Positions 12,029 to 18,537 of a DNA stretch of 64,000 bases are shown here, in pieces (within the stretch, counting starts at the first letter, position 1; every line of letters starts with the position of its first letter). The stretch is from NCBI RefSeq assembly GCF_003334405.1, contig NZ_QOWM01000004.1; one strand, given 5' to 3'. This DNA is from Escherichia coli. GTDB lineage: Bacteria; Pseudomonadota; Gammaproteobacteria; Enterobacterales; Enterobacteriaceae. Under the pieces are notes generated by a model that saw only the letters and a program-made list of their open reading frames with translations, ran no database searches and was not told where the DNA came from. Both the position numbers and the translations under genes were made by a program.

Positions 12029-13294
12029 TCAAACATCCATGCCCAACGCTCGCTTACCGTGAATGTTGAGGTCGGCAAGCGTAAAGCGTCCTTCCCAGTT
12101 TGTTTCATAGTCCTCGCGCGGGAAGTCGCCCGGCGATGCGCCTTTTTCCAGTGCGGCCTTCACCTTGTGCGCGTAGGCAAGATTTTTCTCGCACATCGGT
12201 GCCGCAGGAATGTACATCACGTTGCCCCAACCTTGTTGATTTTCAACGGGGGCAACGGAATGGATGACGTCGCAGTGCCACCAGACGGAGTCTCCGGCTT
12301 CGAGTTTTGGAATGCTGGTTAACGCCTCAATCAACAGTGGATGCCATTGCTCTGATACCGGCAATACTCTTCCGGGCGCTACGCCGCACAGTTCATCCTC
12401 CGGCACATCATCAAGCAGCGGACGTAACAGTACGTACGCCATAGCTTCAGGAATGGGCACGACGTGCAGCAGCCCCTGACCAGGCAGCATATCAGAGAGC
12501 GCTGTCCAGCCCTGGAATGTCCGAAACACGGAACATTTGGTGGTGTTGTCCACCGTGTACTCTTCAACTTCCGTACGATGTGCCGCATGCCAGGGATCAT
12601 ATTGCGCCAGATTGCCATTAAAGACGTTGGCGAAAACGCGCTGATACGCTGGAAGCAGCCAGCGTTCCAGTGCCCCGGAGTCGGTATGCGCTCCAAGACC
12701 TTTGGAGGTCGTTCCGGGCGGACGGCGGCGGATACGGTCAGGGTAGATGACGCTCACATCCGGGTTAAACCATTGCTTTCCATCACTTTCAAATGTCCAC
12801 AGACGATTGAGAAACGACTGCGCATTCGCCATTTCTTCACTCTGGCGGGCCTGCATTTGCGCCTGCGACCAGTAGATGGGGTAAATCTCGGGACGTGAAG
12901 CGCTGAGCGTCCCGAAGAAATTATCGCCGGGGCCTTTGTAGACCTCGTCAAAGCGGTTGCGGTCCAGATAGTCCAGCATCGACTGATCCCAGCCTAGCGC
13001 TTGTTCGCGGGGGAAATGGCCTTTTATCACCGCACAACCGCGACGTTTAATCTGTTCGCGCTGCTCTGCAGTAACATGACCTGCTTTGATATCGGCATAA
13101 GACAGCACCGGCCAGACGGCATCGCCCTGTGCTTTGAGTGCGTTGATTTCAGCCACTCGCGTGGCAATGTCATCGCTTAGCTGATTAAAGATCTGCTGGA
13201 CGTCGCCAAGCTGCGCCCGCAGCGCGTGCTTCATCTGACGGATAGCTGCTTTGTGATCGGCAGGCAATGTGTCGCTGGTAAAAGTAGAAGCCAT
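12029..13294 (-). CDS. ybiU: Uncharacterised protein YbiU (DUF1479 family)
   Basis: ORF track 12029..13300 (-); known N-terminus MASTFTSDTLPADHKAAIRQ begins at the ATG at 13292-13294, preceded by a GAGGTGG SD. Confidence 0.85.
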   Translation of the reverse strand: MASTFTSDTLPADHKAAIRQMKHALRAQLGDVQQIFNQLSDDIATRVAEINALKAQGDAVWPVLSYADIKAGHVTAEQREQIKRRGCAVIKGHFPREQALGWDQSMLDYLDRNRFDEVYKGPGDNFFGTLSASRPEIYPIYWSQAQMQARQSEEMANAQSFLNRLWTFESDGKQWFNPDVSVIYPDRIRRRPPGTTSKGLGAHTDSGALERWLLPAYQRVFANVFNGNLAQYDPWHAAHRTEVEEYTVDNTTKCSVFRTFQGWTALSDMLPGQGLLHVVPIPEAMAYVLLRPLLDDVPEDELCGVAPGRVLPVSEQWHPLLIEALTSIPKLEAGDSVWWHCDVIHSVAPVENQQGWGNVMYIPAAPMCEKNLAYAHKVKAALEKGASPGDFPREDYETNWEGRFTLADLNIHGKRALGMDV

Positions 13295-13310
13295 AACCAC
13301 CTCTCATTAA

Positions 13311-13323
13311 CTTTCATTCGAAA
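13311..13323 (-). promoter_or_regulatory. Motif copy A: TTTCGAATGAAAG (extended TTTCGAATGAAAGTTA) in the ybiU 5' region
   Basis: Plus strand reads CTTTCATTCGAAA; exact 13-mer shared with 14332-14344 and 17780-17792, 16-mer shared with the latter. Confidence 0.35.
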
Positions 13324-13401
13324 CCATTCTGATTTGCATGTGACAATATAAGTTATAAATAAGTTAATGCAAGTTTAATGATTTGATGTGATGTACAGGA
13401 T

Positions 13402-13438
13402 GTAAAAAGAAGGGAAAACCGGAGCGCACGGCTCCGGT
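13402..13438 (-). terminator. Rho-independent terminator downstream of ybiV
   Basis: Minus-strand CCGGAGCCGTGCGCTCCGG hairpin followed by TTTTCCCTTCTTTTT. Confidence 0.6.
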
Positions 13439-13445
13439 AGAGAGG

Positions 13446-14261
13446 TCAGCTGTTAAAAGGGGATGTGTTATCCAGCACCGCCTGAATCACATTCAGCGCG
13501 CCTTCATGATTATTATCATCGGTAGCGTAACGGGCGATTTGTTTAATGTTTTCCGCAGCATTGCCCATCGCAAAGGAATAACGCGCCATTTTCAGCATCT
13601 CCGCATCGTTACCGCTGTCGCCAATCGCTACCACATTTTGCGGTGACAGATCCCAGCGTTTCAGTAACCGCGAAATACCGTTTGCTTTATGTAGACCGGG
13701 AATAATCAGGTCGATAAAGCCAAAACCACTGGTAACGGGTTTCATAATGCCATCGAGCGCTACGTGCAGTTTGTCGATCACTAACGGGATTTGTTCATCC
13801 GGCAGGTTGAGCGAAAACTTGAACAGTACGTCGTCAATCTCCTGATAATCTTTTACAGGTTTCAGGCGATGGTAGTGTTTTGCCATCAGTGCGACAAATG
13901 CTTCGGGGGCATTTTCGCTGACATATGCACTTTGCAGACCGCAGGCGACAAAATTGAGTTGCTTGTCTTTTAGCAACTCGCCAATAACAATCCGCGATTC
14001 ATGTCGGGTCAGTTCGCCGTGGAACAACTGCTTGCCATGTTCGTAAACCAGTGCGCCGTTTTCCGCGACAAAAGAGATCTCATCCTTTAGCTCAGGAAAG
14101 AATGAAATAAGCTGGTAATACTGATTACCGCTGGCAACAACGAACTTAATGCCGCGCTTTTTCAGTTCCTGATATTGCGCCATAAAACGTGGTTGGTTGT
14201 ACGTTTTGGCGTCGTTAAGAAAAGTACCGTCCATGTCTGTGACGATAACTTTTACGCTCAT
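13446..14261 (-). CDS. ybiV: HAD-family (Cof-type) sugar phosphatase YbiV
   Basis: ORF track 13446..14261 (-), 271 aa, [17 protein letters not shown]... with DxDGT HAD motif I; paralogue of ybjI in this window. Confidence 0.92.
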
Positions 14262-14331
14262 AGGTGTGCTCCTGGCTCGAAAATGAAACCGTAACAGTGT
14301 AATAACAATGTGACGCAGAGCACAAATTATA

Positions 14332-14344
14332 TTTCGAATGAAAG
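14332..14344 (+). promoter_or_regulatory. Motif copy B: TTTCGAATGAAAG between ybiW stop and ybiV start
   Basis: Exact 13-mer read directly; followed by ATTGATGATGTG, resembling the sequence after copy C. Confidence 0.35.
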
Positions 14345-14406
14345 TAAGGATGAAATTGATGATGTGAATGATTTAGCCCGGCGACGACGCCGCCGGGCCG
14401 AGGAGA

Positions 14407-16839
14407 TTACAGCATATGTTCAGTACGGGCGATGATATCGTCCTGAGCGTCTGGAGAGAGCGCGGTGAAGAACGCGGAATAGCCCGCGACACGCACTACC
14501 AGATCGCGATACTGATCGGGATGTTTTTTCGCATCCAGCAGCGTTTCGCGGGAAACGATGTTGTACTGAATATGCCAGCCTTTATGCACTTCAAAGAAGG
14601 TACGCAGCAGGATCATCAGTTTCTGCTTGTCAGATTCGTTCTCCAGCGTTGCCGGATTCAGTTTCTGGTTGAGCAACACGCCGCCGAGAATCGCTGCCGT
14701 AGGCAGTTTACCCACTGAGCCAATGACCGCAGTAGGGCCAAGATGGTCAGTACCGGAGGCCGGGCTTGCGCCTTCTGCCAGCGGGGTGTGGGCTTTACGC
14801 CCGTCCGGTGTTGCCATAGTCTGCGCGCCAAACGGTACGTTAGCGGAGATTGATGACGTACCCGCGTAATAGTTGCCGCCAACCGGACCACGACCGTAGC
14901 GCGGATTATGGTACTGTTTCAGTTCGTCGATATAGGTCTGATAAGCGCGAGCCAGCAGCGTATCGACAGTATCATCGTCGTTGCCGTACTTCGGCGCACC
15001 GTTAATCAGCCGCTGACGCAGCTGCTCGTGAGTCAGGCCGTCGAAGTCATCTGCCAGTGCGGCAGCAAGCTGTTGCTGACCAATCGCACCTTGTTCAAAC
15101 ACCAGTTTCTTCACTGCCGCCAGGCTGTTGCCGAGGTTGGCAATGCCGACCTGCAGGCCAGAAACCCAGTCATATTTCGCGCCGCCTTGCTTGATACTTT
15201 TCGCTCGCTCAATACAGTCATCCACCAGCGCCGAGCAGAGAATATCGTGCACGTTCTCTTCCAGCATGGTGTCGACGACATATTCGATTTCGATTGATTT
15301 GCGGGTGTAGTAACGGATTTGCGTATCCCACGCGTCCATCACTTCATCGAAGTTGTTGAAGTTACCTGCCGACAACGCTTTTTCTTGTGGCAGGAACACT
15401 TTGCCGCTGGTGGCATCATGCCCGCCTTCCAGCGCCGCCAGCATCACGCGGGCGAAGTTGATAAAGCTCATGCCGGTACAGCGATAGCCCCATTTGCCAC
15501 CGACGGCGGTTTCTATACAACCAATCGCTGCGTAGTCATAAGCGTCCTGCGGTTCAATACCGAGTTTAATAAATTCCGGGATCACGATTTCGTCGTTGTT
15601 GAACGCCGGCATCCCGAAGCCGCAACGGATCACCTGTACGCAGGCGTCGAGGAAATCGTTGCTCATTCCTGCATGGTAACGCACGCTGAGGTTAGGCTGA
15701 GTGGAACGCAGGCGACCGCAGGATTCGAGGATCGCGTAAGAGAGTGGATTCACCGCGTCCATTGGTTGACCATCAACCAGATTTTGCCCGCCAATAGTGA
15801 CGTTCTGATACAGCGGACTTCCCGCAGAGGCTTTTGAGTGTGAGCCGGAGCGGATCTTGTTCACTTCCAGCAGTTTCAGCCAGCAGCTATGCAGCATCTC
15901 GATGGCGTGTTCGCGATCCAGCGTCTGGTTGAGTTCAACGTCGCGGCGATAGTACGGGTAGAGATACTGGTCCATACGACCAAACGATACTGAGTGACCG
16001 TTAGATTCGATCTGCAAAATCAACTGGATGAAGTAACACAGTTGCAGCGCCTGCCAGAAAGTCTGCGGCGGCTGGTGGGCGATAAGATCGCAGTTTTCTG
16101 CCATCGCCAGCAGTTCATCGCGACGGCTTTCGCGGGTTTCGGTCGCGGCCATTTCACGCGCCAGGGCAGCGAAACGTTCAATGTGTTCACTGACTGCCAC
16201 CAGCACGATATCAATCGCTTTCAGGAATTGCTCACCGTGTAAATCTTCCAGCACCGTCAGGTTGATGCGCGAGCGACGTTCCGCTACTTTCTCGCGCAGA
16301 CCATCAAGCCCTTTTTCCAGCAGCAGCGGGAAATTCACCGCCAGGTGCGCATCGCCGGAGGTCATATTGCCTTCCGCTTTAATGATTCCGGTCGCCAGCA
16401 GACCTTTTTGCTCATCGGTAAACATGCCGTAGCAGCGATCCTGTACGGTCTGACCGCGCCACCACGGGCACACTTCATGCAGAACGCGTTTGTTCTCTTC
16501 GCTCACCGCAAAGCCAGCACCGGGACGATCTGCCAGATCATCAATCTCTTTTTCGATCCACGAGACAGTATATTCCGGGAAGATCGGCGCGGCGCGAACT
16601 TCGCTTGCCTGGTTGCCAATGATCAACTCATCGTGTTTGATCCAGATGGTGCGATTCGCCAGGTGATGCGCCAGTGCCAGCGCGCGACGTACCGGGATCG
16701 GCTTATCGAGATGTTGTTGATACATCTCGGTATAGTGCTGCGCGCGCTCGGTACAGACTGGCGGTTTCACAATATGCACCAGCGCATTTTTGTGCGCTTT
16801 AATGCGGTCGCTGAGCGTGTCCAGTTTCAGTGTGGTCAT
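14407..16839 (-). CDS. ybiW: Glycyl-radical enzyme YbiW (pyruvate formate-lyase family, substrate unassigned here)
   Basis: ORF track 14407..16839 (-), 810 aa; C-terminal glycyl-radical fingerprint RVAGYSAFF; PFL-like length. Confidence 0.92.
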   Translation of the reverse strand: MTTLKLDTLSDRIKAHKNALVHIVKPPVCTERAQHYTEMYQQHLDKPIPVRRALALAHHLANRTIWIKHDELIIGNQASEVRAAPIFPEYTVSWIEKEIDDLADRPGAGFAVSEENKRVLHEVCPWWRGQTVQDRCYGMFTDEQKGLLATGIIKAEGNMTSGDAHLAVNFPLLLEKGLDGLREKVAERRSRINLTVLEDLHGEQFLKAIDIVLVAVSEHIERFAALAREMAATETRESRRDELLAMAENCDLIAHQPPQTFWQALQLCYFIQLILQIESNGHSVSFGRMDQYLYPYYRRDVELNQTLDREHAIEMLHSCWLKLLEVNKIRSGSHSKASAGSPLYQNVTIGGQNLVDGQPMDAVNPLSYAILESCGRLRSTQPNLSVRYHAGMSNDFLDACVQVIRCGFGMPAFNNDEIVIPEFIKLGIEPQDAYDYAAIGCIETAVGGKWGYRCTGMSFINFARVMLAALEGGHDATSGKVFLPQEKALSAGNFNNFDEVMDAWDTQIRYYTRKSIEIEYVVDTMLEENVHDILCSALVDDCIERAKSIKQGGAKYDWVSGLQVGIANLGNSLAAVKKLVFEQGAIGQQQLAAALADDFDGLTHEQLRQRLINGAPKYGNDDDTVDTLLARAYQTYIDELKQYHNPRYGRGPVGGNYYAGTSSISANVPFGAQTMATPDGRKAHTPLAEGASPASGTDHLGPTAVIGSVGKLPTAAILGGVLLNQKLNPATLENESDKQKLMILLRTFFEVHKGWHIQYNIVSRETLLDAKKHPDQYRDLVVRVAGYSAFFTALSPDAQDDIIARTEHML

Positions 16840-16844
16840 GGTTG

Positions 16845-17744
16845 TTATCCTCGTAAGGTCGCGGTTAACCCTTTCTGGCAGGCATACTGCTGGGCAAAGT
16901 CGAGCAGTTCTGGCGCATCAAGCGGTTTTTCCGGGGCGTCATAGGGCAGATTAAGTAAGTGATATTTGTTGATGCCCAGCGTGTGGTAGGGCAGAAAATG
17001 AATTTCGCCAACGTGCAGCTCGTCGGCGGCAAAATCGGTAATGGCTTTTACAGAGGTTTCGTCGGCATTAAAGCCCTGAATCAGCGGCACGCGGATAATG
17101 ATTTTTTTGCCCGCTGCGGCGAGTTTTTTCAGGTTATCCAGCACTCTGGCGGCGTTACCGTCGGTCCACTGTTTAAACGGCGCGTCGGCAACGTGTTTTA
17201 AATCGGCAAGAAACAGATCGATATAGGGCAGAGAAGGGGCGATATATTTCCACGGCACATGCAGACAGGTTTCTACCGCAGTATGAATGCCTGCCTCGTG
17301 GCTGGCTTGCAGTAGCGCCATCGCCATTTCCGGCTGCATAAAGGGCTCACCACCCGAAAGCGTTAAACCGCCGCCGCTGCGATCGTAAAACGGTTTATCG
17401 CGCAGAACGGTCGTCATGATCTCCTCAACGCTTTTCACTTCACCACACACGGTTAATGCCTGTGTCGGACAGCAGTCGGTTAACGCCGTCAGATGCTCCG
17501 GGGTTAACTTTTCCCGATGAATAAGCAAACCATTCAGCGCGCGCTCAATCACTTCCGGCGCGGCCTTAGCGCACAGCTCGCAGCCTTCCAGACACAGTCG
17601 TGCGTCATACAGCAGATCCTGCGTGCGGGCGCGGCTTTCCGGGTTCTGACACCAGCGGCAGCCCAGCGAACAGCCTTTAAGAAATACGACCGTGCGGATA
17701 CCGGGGCCATCATGGGTCGAGTAGCGCTGAATATTGAAAATCAT
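16845..17744 (-). CDS. ybiY: Glycyl-radical enzyme activating enzyme YbiY (radical SAM)
   Basis: ORF track 16845..17771 (-); CxxxCxxC radical-SAM motif (CSLGCRWC) plus extra Cys clusters; start placed at the ATG at 17742-17744 (MIFNIQRY...), which has an AGAGG SD; the upstream in-frame ATG at 17771 is a possible alternative. Confidence 0.85.
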
Positions 17745-17779
17745 AGTTGCCTCTCTATTTCGTTCAAGCATTAAAATAC

Positions 17780-17792
17780 TTTCGAATGAAAG
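17780..17792 (+). promoter_or_regulatory. Motif copy C: TTTCGAATGAAAG (16-mer TTTCGAATGAAAGTTA) in the ybiY/fsaA divergent region
   Basis: Exact 13-mer; with its 5' C it forms the inverted repeat CTTTC-N4-GAAAG. Confidence 0.35.
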
Positions 17793-17797
17793 TTAGA

Positions 17798-17811
17798 TTG
17801 ATGTGCGTCAA
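17798..17811. promoter_or_regulatory. FNR-like site TTGAT-N4-GTCAA (9/10 match to TTGAT-N4-ATCAA) in the ybiY/fsaA divergent region
   Basis: TTGATGTGCGTCAA read directly; centre lies about 41 bp upstream of a plausible ybiY transcription start if ybiY begins at 17744. Confidence 0.3.
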
Positions 17812-17874
17812 CTGTTCAGAGAGTTTTCCCGTGATAGTCTACATTCAGACAAAAAGTACATTTTGAGGATGGTT

Positions 17875-18537
17875 ATGGAACTGTATCTGGATACTTCAGA
17901 CGTTGTTGCGGTGAAGGCGCTGTCACGTATTTTTCCGCTGGCGGGTGTGACCACTAACCCAAGCATTATCGCCGCGGGTAAAAAACCGCTGGATGTTGTG
18001 CTTCCGCAACTTCATGAAGCGATGGGCGGTCAGGGGCGTCTGTTTGCCCAGGTAATGGCTACCACTGCCGAAGGGATGGTTAATGACGCGCTTAAGCTGC
18101 GTTCTATTATTGCGGATATCGTGGTGAAAGTTCCGGTGACCGCCGAGGGGCTGGCAGCTATTAAGATGTTAAAAGCGGAAGGGATTCCGACGCTGGGAAC
18201 CGCGGTATATGGCGCAGCACAAGGGCTGCTGTCGGCGCTGGCAGGTGCGGAATATGTTGCGCCTTACGTTAATCGTATTGATGCTCAGGGCGGTAGCGGC
18301 ATTCAGACTGTGACCGACTTACACCAGTTATTGAAAATGCATGCGCCGCAGGCGAAAGTGCTGGCAGCGAGTTTCAAAACCCCGCGTCAGGCGCTGGACT
18401 GCTTACTGGCAGGATGTGAATCAATTACTCTGCCACTGGATGTGGCACAACAGATGATTAGCTATCCGGCGGTTGATGCCGCTGTGGCGAAGTTTGAGCA
18501 GGACTGGCAGGGAGCGTTTGGCAGAACGTCGATTTAA
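17875..18537 (+). CDS. fsaA: Fructose-6-phosphate aldolase 1
   Basis: Known N-terminus [16 protein letters not shown] at the ATG at 17875, 220 aa, transaldolase-like; track ORF 17803..18537 starts upstream. Confidence 0.92.

Follow-up and report, generated by a model that had tools for sequence, protein, structure and literature searches.

YbiW, a glycyl-radical enzyme, and the fructose-6-phosphate aldolases (FSA) were long-standing orphans of Escherichia coli, for which a function and crystal structures have now been published. In its section 5.1, a 2025 review (PMC12441222) credits Ma et al. (JACS 2024, 146:26187) with the identification of anaerobic pathways for 1,5-anhydroglucitol and 1,5-anhydromannitol, both of which begin with phosphorylation by a phosphotransferase system (PTS). 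By that section's account, YbiW converts 1,5-anhydroglucitol-6-phosphate, and PflD converts 1,5-anhydromannitol-6-phosphate, to 1-deoxyfructose-6-phosphate, each in a glycyl-radical reaction, and the pathway enables E. coli to grow on 1,5-anhydroglucitol. YbiW is in these terms reported to be a ring-opening C-O lyase (“dehydratase”) of 1,5-anhydroglucitol-6-phosphate. Here, we analyzed a 64,000-nucleotide stretch of E. coli DNA (contig NZ_QOWM01000004.1; referred to as the window), of which positions 14407 to 18537 carry ybiW, its activase gene ybiY, and the divergent aldolase gene fsaA. The window comes from a strain other than K-12, yet its YbiW is the same protein as that of the K-12 YbiW/YbiY system (Ma et al. 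2024; 8ID7, 8YJN), and nothing substantive differs. We put at about 0.88 the probability that ybiY-ybiW together with fsaA form the core of an anaerobic 1,5-anhydroglucitol (1-deoxyglucose) route under YciT and FNR control; the function, structure, and regulator of the system are already known.

A close relative of this system lies at 89 min of the E. coli chromosome, where PflD/PflC, the frw PTS, and fsaB-gldA make up a paralogous route that the same section of the review assigns to 1,5-anhydromannitol-6-phosphate, the C2 epimer. PflD has 39% identity to YbiW, an identical RVAGYSAFF fingerprint, and a GC(V/I)E loop in common with it, and the two loci resemble each other in having an aldolase gene nearby (fsaB being the paralogue) and in the reported product. 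The pflD locus differs in having its own PTS components, gldA, and the AraC-type yijO; moreover, a search of the pflD/frw locus for the operator described below (ACTTTC-N4-GAAAGT) found none. The B12-independent glycerol dehydratase of Clostridium butyricum (1R8W) and related eliminase-type enzymes (propanediol and hydroxyproline dehydratases and choline trimethylamine-lyase) have in common with the YbiW system the fold, a single catalytic Cys with a Glu at +2, an ESNGHS motif, and an activase with extra Fe-S cluster motifs. These enzymes expel a hydroxyl or amine, whereas the leaving group for YbiW would be the ether oxygen in the ring of its sugar-phosphate substrate. The glycyl-radical fold, fingerprint, and radical S-adenosylmethionine (SAM) activase are also found in PflB/PflA, from which YbiW is set apart by the Cys418-Cys419 dyad of PflB, which lacks the Glu.

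The assignment of YbiW is carried by its domains and active site. YbiW matched the PFL-like domain PF02901 (695 bits, residues 11 to 671) and the Gly_radical domain PF01228 (112 bits, residues 688 to 792), and its fingerprint occupies residues 783 to 791. In an alignment with PflD and PflB of E. coli K-12 (26% identity between YbiW and PflB), Cys441 of YbiW was invariant; the loop around it reads G-C441-I-E443 in YbiW, G-C-V-E in PflD, and A-C418-C419-V-S in PflB. The comparison with 1R8W, taken from a HMMER alignment, matched C433-V-E435 to C441-I-E443, while Asp447 of 1R8W fell on a Gly within an insertion of two residues in YbiW (RCTGMSF), so the pocket is unlike that of the small-diol dehydratases. 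TIGR01774 (the PFL2/glycerol dehydratase subfamily; score of 1411 bits, cut-off 678) was the sole NCBIfam model that YbiW passed; it fell under the cut-off of every NCBIfam equivalog model, that for pyruvate formate-lyase included (TIGR01255, 165 bits against 994). YbiY passed TIGR02494 (370 bits against 174) and matched the Pfam families Radical_SAM and Fer4_12, with a weak Fer4_13 match at residues 54 to 98. The PDB entries 8ID7 and 8YJN (“Probable dehydratase YbiW”) cover residues 1 to 810 of the window's YbiW at 1863 bits and differ from it by three substitutions at residues 114 to 117, which are probably engineered, and by K182E, probably a strain polymorphism; the PDB also holds 8YJO, “Probable dehydratase PflD.” Judged by its predicted catalytic residues, YbiW groups with the eliminase-type glycyl-radical enzymes and, by analogy with them, very probably works by their spin-center-shift chemistry. 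A preliminary description of this DNA, made from the letters alone, had read a glycyl-radical enzyme paired with a radical-SAM activase, and the domains, the fingerprint, the CX3CX2C motif (C25, C29, and C32 of YbiY), and the adjacency of ybiY all agree with it.

Established glycyl-radical eliminase chemistry is the basis on which the radical steps can be sketched. 1,5-Anhydroglucitol is reportedly phosphorylated on entry by a PTS. YbiY, by means of its [4Fe-4S] cluster and SAM, would install a radical on Gly786 of YbiW, from which it would move to Cys441; the thiyl radical could then abstract a hydrogen atom adjacent to a hydroxyl, Glu443 would aid the formation of a ketyl radical, the ring oxygen at C1 would be expelled in a spin-center shift, and the hydrogen would be returned from Cys441 to the product. 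Downstream, FsaA is proposed to cleave 1-deoxyfructose-6-phosphate: FsaA or FsaB is said to split it into glyceraldehyde-3-phosphate and hydroxyacetone, and GldA reportedly reduces the latter to 1,2-propanediol. FSA accepts hydroxyacetone as an aldol donor, which fits such a cleavage step. The preliminary description had also favored a sugar or sugar-phosphate route with a substrate not readable from sequence; the former was borne out by the 1,5-anhydroglucitol-6-phosphate report (PMC12441222, citing Ma et al. 2024), while the latter holds for sequence and annotation but no longer for experiment, which by the review's pathway section gave the substrate in 2024.

The partnership of the three genes extends well beyond E. 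coli. The comparison covered 80 Enterobacterales loci with a YbiW of ≥84% identity: ybiY and ybiW were present in all 80, and fsaA (59/80), ybiV (49/80), and ybiU (47/80) were adjacent in part of them, the last two only in Enterobacteriaceae proper. The set fsaA-ybiY-ybiW is a co-travelling core. A fuller assembly was that of Rouxiella aceris (L057, 5101 to 19107), in which two yciT genes, ybiU, fsaA, ybiY, and ybiW are accompanied by genes for a ROK-family kinase and a major facilitator superfamily (MFS) transporter, a gldA homologue, and ptsG. An operator-like site, ACTTTCATATGAAAT, lies upstream of this gluP/fucP-type sugar MFS transporter (~17334 to 17348).

The control region of the pair is conserved as well. 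The 14-mer TTTCGAATGAAAGT, the core of a 16-bp palindromic operator element (ACTTTC-N4-GAAAGT), had three exact copies in the 64 kb of the window and no other site within 2 mismatches, and all three sit in promoter regions, one each for ybiU, ybiV, and ybiY/fsaA. The consensus operators of Cra, CRP, and other E. coli regulators fitted the 14-mer poorly and were discarded as candidates. Upstream of ybiY, the palindrome was exact in 54 of the 80 loci and within 2 mismatches in 68, and in 64 it was accompanied, at a distance of exactly 4 nt, by an FNR-type box (up to 2 mismatches to TTGAT-N4-ATCAA). Across 14 genera, the aligned spacer had diverged except for GTTGAT-N4-ATCAA-tata-ACTTTCATTCGAAAGT-AATTTAAT, in which the FNR consensus is perfect. 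If TTTAAT (17775 to 17770) is the −10 element, the transcription start of ybiY is predicted at ~17763 and the FNR box would be at a class II position, its center at −41.5 relative to this predicted (unmapped) start. A hexamer pair from a promoter scan that overlaps the ybiY start codon was set aside in favor of the conserved footprint. The ybiY promoter would be a class II FNR promoter in which the operator fills the space between box and −10. Conserved promoter-like footprints of their own, with an operator copy and without an FNR box, precede ybiU and ybiV, a layout that fits the strong aerobic derepression of both genes in published RNA-seq.

The likely repressor is known from independent work. 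Gao et al. (NAR 2021, PMC8464067) found that the DeoR-type YciT represses ybiU, ybiV, ybiW, ybiY, and fsaA, in a pathway then called uncharacterized, and reported YciT peaks by ChIP-exo in front of ybiUVWY and of fsaA; the guess of a DeoR-type operator was borne out by this literature. Deletion of yciT raised all five genes in that study (log2 fold changes of +7.7 for ybiY, +7.0 for ybiU, +3.5 for ybiW, +2.2 for ybiV, and +1.8 for fsaA); ybiU ranked second to ybiY in derepression, and its expression level far exceeded that of the other four. Together with one operator in three promoter regions, this bears out co-regulation with the neighboring genes, the lack of which the preliminary description had counted among the findings against its reading. 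In E. coli, yciT is located elsewhere on the chromosome, apart from the ybi cluster. In 17 of the 80 loci, however, a yciT orthologue (58 to 81% identical to E. coli YciT) adjoined ybiW or fsaA, in genera including Buttiauxella, Cedecea, Franconibacter, Serratia, Rouxiella, Brenneria, Pantoea, Affinibrenneria, and Prodigiosinella (Table 1), which supports YciT as the operator-binding protein. In Buttiauxella (L070), pyrF and lapB, the neighbors of yciT in E. coli, stood beside the cluster as well. Gene order of this kind indicates that YciT is the cluster's own regulator and that both once shared one locus. The resulting control would be an AND gate in which FNR activates in anoxia and YciT blocks until an inducer appears; the radical enzyme would be made only without oxygen and with the repressor released, most likely by one of the pathway's sugar phosphates.

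Several points weigh against this reading of the locus. The substrate claim for YbiW has its basis in the pathway section of the review (PMC12441222) and in PDB molecule names, and NCBIfam release 20 holds no equivalog for the activity and hence gives no library confirmation. The window does not encode the transporter for this sugar. In 21 of the 80 loci (e.g., in Klebsiella, Raoultella, and Yersinia), fsaA was not adjacent to ybiY, and another aldolase must serve there. On the regulatory side, we found no publication linking ybiY with FNR among the papers searched, and FNR control is a prediction from sequence. The YciT ChIP-exo peaks at 858455 to 858488 and 862873 to 862900 (NC_000913.2), shifted by +777 to NC_000913.3 for the comparison, fall within ybiV (3′ end) and fsaA (5′ end), ~100 to 170 bp away from operator copies 1 and 3, and the YciT motif sequence is absent from the supplements of PMC8464067. 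Because the peaks miss the operator copies and the motif sequence is lacking, we only infer that YciT binds ACTTTC-N4-GAAAGT.

Other readings of the enzyme fare worse. That YbiW and YbiY are a second pyruvate (or 2-ketobutyrate) formate-lyase is what the K-12 annotation, “putative pyruvate formate lyase,” would have them be, and the PFL-like fold and Gly_radical domain agree with the name. The active site does not: GCIE stands in YbiW where PflB has ACCVS, with no Cys-Cys dyad, and this test refuted the candidate. The low identity to PflB and the TIGR01255 score far under its cut-off point the same way, as do the nearest characterized structures, which are dehydratases, and the different reaction given in the review's pathway section (PMC12441222, citing Ma et al.); we give a formate-lyase practically no credence. 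The preliminary description had likewise argued against a second pyruvate formate-lyase, naming an active site identical to that of the formate-lyase among the findings to overturn it; the alignment it proposed was run, and the single Cys441 with Glu443 is no such site. A small-diol dehydratase of the glycerol or propanediol type, with the sugar-phosphate neighbors a coincidence, agrees with the similarity searches, in which the best characterized matches were 1R8W (E = 1e-163) and the diol dehydratase 5I2A (E = 2e-151), and with the GC(V/I)E and ESNGHS motifs common to both. Yet the replacement of Asp447 by a Gly in the YbiW insertion gives a different pocket, the partnership with fsaA and yciT is kept across genera, no microcompartment or diol-pathway genes lie near ybiW, and the literature names a sugar-phosphate substrate (PMC12441222, citing Ma et al., in the section cited above), so this too is very improbable.

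A further reading accepts 1,5-anhydroglucitol-6-phosphate as the substrate and differs as to purpose: the main role in vivo would be to detoxify a dead-end analogue of glucose-6-phosphate (sugar-phosphate stress relief) rather than to gain carbon or energy. A phosphatase (YbiV) and an oxygenase-fold protein (YbiU) in the same regulon suit removal better than growth, and the sgrR-sgrS stress locus of six Yersinia species encloses ybiYW. Against this, E. coli grows on the compound according to the pathway section of PMC12441222, and a catabolic role agrees with the partner aldolase, which would give glyceraldehyde-3-phosphate. We regard detoxification as the main role as improbable, although less so than either alternative enzyme activity; the two roles are not mutually exclusive.

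Several E. coli chromosomes match the 4131-base stretch at 14407 to 18537 with 100% identity, and none of the 5426 complete genomes of the species that were searched lacks it. Its open reading frames (ORFs) agree with the RefSeq annotation of the best-matching genome, the order from ybiU to fsaA is that of K-12, and moeB is the next gene past fsaA; ybiU, ybiV, ybiW, ybiY, and fsaA are real genes, with chance ORFs excluded. The fingerprint, the radical-SAM motif, and the flanking ybiV, ybiU, and divergent fsaA that the preliminary description had listed were all present (Table 1). The mechanical ORF of ybiY extends to 17771, beyond the annotated start. An intergenic gap of only 5 bp makes ybiY and ybiW one operon. 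The hairpin directly after ybiW, where a terminator scan made no call, might attenuate read-through into ybiV.

Table 1. Features of the ybiU-fsaA region (window positions) and, in the last two rows, comparison loci in which yciT adjoins the cluster (locus positions)
Feature	Position	Strand	Remarks
ybiU	12029-13294	-	DUF1479 protein per RefSeq record; homologues with Pfam PF07350
Operator copy 1	13310-13323	-	Between the promoter-like site and the start codon of ybiU, 16 nt short of the latter
ybiU promoter-like site TTGCAT-16 nt-TATATT	13345-13372	-	Read from sequence; conserved footprint
Terminator-like hairpin with T-run	13418-13438	-	3′ of ybiV; terminator scan
ybiV	13446-14261	-	Cof-type HAD-IIB hydrolase (NCBIfam), sugar phosphatase
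Operator copy 2	14332-14345	+	Between ybiW stop and ybiV start, abuts TATAAT; kept in 8 genera
GC-rich hairpin GCCCGGCG-N7-CGCCGGGC	14376-14398	-	Directly 3′ of ybiW stop, without T-run; read by eye
ybiW	14407-16839	-	Glycyl-radical enzyme, 810 aa
Fingerprint RVAGYSAFF	14467-14493	-	Radical site Gly786; aligns with PflB RVSGYAVRF, Gly734
Cys loop Cys441-Ile-Glu443	15511-15519	-	Putative thiyl-radical Cys and general-base Glu, eliminase-type; from alignment with PflD, PflB, and 1R8W
ybiY	16845-17744	-	Radical-SAM activase; 299 aa, counted from the conserved ATG of the annotation
YbiY CX3CX2C motif (C25, C29, C32)	17649-17672	-	Predicted radical-SAM [4Fe-4S] cluster ligands
Predicted ybiY −10, TTTAAT	17770-17775	-	Conserved as AATTTAAT in 14 genera; hexamer assignment inferred
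Operator copy 3	17778-17793 (16 bp); 17780-17793 (14-mer)	+	ybiY/fsaA spacer, between FNR box and ybiY −10
FNR-type box TTGATGTGCGTCAA	17798-17811		9/10 to TTGAT-N4-ATCAA; 4 nt from operator copy 3
fsaA	17875-18537	+	Fructose-6-phosphate aldolase, 220 aa; NCBIfam NF009296, 451 bits; divergent from ybiY
yciT-adjacent loci L064, L065, L066, L069, L070, L071, L073, L078, L082, L083, L084	~12440-13220		
Further yciT-adjacent loci L050, L057, L058, L060, L076, L080			

Some further observations concern the ybiU-ybiW part of the region. In other genera the ybiW-ybiV spacer is packed with palindromes resembling repetitive extragenic palindromes (REP) or bacterial interspersed mosaic elements (BIME). 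A CRP-like palindrome, TGTGC-N6-TCACA (14309 to 14324, minus strand), lies 7 nt past operator copy 2, upstream of ybiV, and was seen in 8 genera; its position with respect to the likely −10 is a poor match to a simple activator site. In two Escherichia loci (L005, 13546 to 14799; L007, 12417 to 13670), YbiU was 82 to 84% identical to that of the window at the protein level, while the neighboring ybiV, ybiW, and ybiY were 95 to 99% identical and the operator copy had 2 mismatches; this divergent ybiU looks like an allele replacement.

YbiU has crystal structures (2DBI, 2DBN, and 2CSG), and a literature search found no paper assigning it a function. H203-x-D205 and H345 were near-invariant across 20 family members (27 to 50% identity), and outside its own family the AlphaFold model (predicted local distance difference test, pLDDT, of 91.5) had as its fold neighbors PhyH-type Fe(II)/2-oxoglutarate dioxygenases, among them PrhA, EvdO1, and AsqJ (E ~3e-7, target TM score ~0.5). 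By this model, YbiU (DUF1479/Gig2-like) is of the Fe(II)/2-oxoglutarate oxygenase fold type. A search for close homologues gave only Enterobacterales at ≥85% identity; among the contexts of five distant homologues, taken from a representative search, two were clusters of sugar ATP-binding cassette transporter and dehydrogenase/aldolase genes, three were uninformative, and no neighbor recurred, so no substrate was deduced from them. An oxygen-requiring fold in the regulon of an oxygen-sensitive enzyme suggests an aerobic branch, for which hydroxylation of 1,5-anhydroglucitol-6-phosphate at C1, beside the ring oxygen, to give glucose-6-phosphate is a plausible candidate reaction of YbiU. YbiV would be a candidate relief phosphatase.

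A connection with sugar-phosphate stress comes from Yersinia. The SgrR/SgrS response senses dead-end glucose-6-phosphate analogues, and YigL, a Cof-type HAD phosphatase, is a target of SgrS; to our knowledge, the known inducers are all artificial. The SgrR-SgrS-SetA-YigL response to non-metabolizable glucose-6-phosphate analogues resembles the present system in that YigL and YbiV belong to the same HAD subfamily and differs from it in that the E. coli ybi genes are under YciT, not SgrR. In six Yersinia species (L072, L074, L075, L077, L079, and L081), ybiY-ybiW lay between sgrR and a setA-like gene (7310 to 14134 in L072), and these loci had neither fsaA nor yciT and showed no operator or FNR box. 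The Yersinia sgrR-ybiY spacer aligned with the E. coli sgrR-sgrS spacer, the −10 and the 5′ start of SgrS included, and the base-pairing module and terminator of SgrS followed 7 nt past the ybiW stop (Rfam score of 26.2 bits, under the gathering score of 37). A simple promoter scan of the Yersinia ybiW 3′ end found none. This arrangement is not new, as Horler and Vanderpool (2009, PMC2760817) described it in Y. enterocolitica, with sgrS possibly operonic with ybiYW. L072 also gave a sub-threshold match to the Rfam Vibrio RNA AS5 (39.5 bits against a gathering score of 96) at 12571 to 12694 (minus strand), in the DNA that separates the SgrS terminator from the setA-like gene; this is probably a repeat-like palindromic element.

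Since the YbiW substrate is a glucose-6-phosphate analogue, the Yersinia arrangement suggests a link to sugar-phosphate stress. Combining that arrangement with the substrate reported in 2024 may be new; a literature search found no paper with both SgrS and anhydroglucitol. One could go further and see in the YciT regulon a two-branch “stress sugar” system, with YbiW acting in anoxia, YbiU under air, YbiV as phosphatase, and 1,5-anhydroglucitol as the trigger of SgrR/SgrS, but we regard this scheme as unlikely.

1,5-Anhydroglucitol, whose anaerobic use is the published function of the system, is a polyol common in the diet and in blood. Annotation lags behind the published function: RefSeq records still give YbiW as “glycyl radical protein” or “putative pyruvate formate lyase” (K-12, NC_000913.3, 860174 to 862606). 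The regulation, in turn, can be read from the DNA, where an FNR box and a YciT-type operator suggest an AND gate of anoxia and sugar phosphate. The co-repressed ybiU and ybiV and the Yersinia sgrS arrangement suggest a link between 1,5-anhydroglucitol and stress; if true, 1,5-anhydroglucitol as a natural trigger of SgrR/SgrS would explain why ybiYW lies inside the Yersinia sgrS unit.

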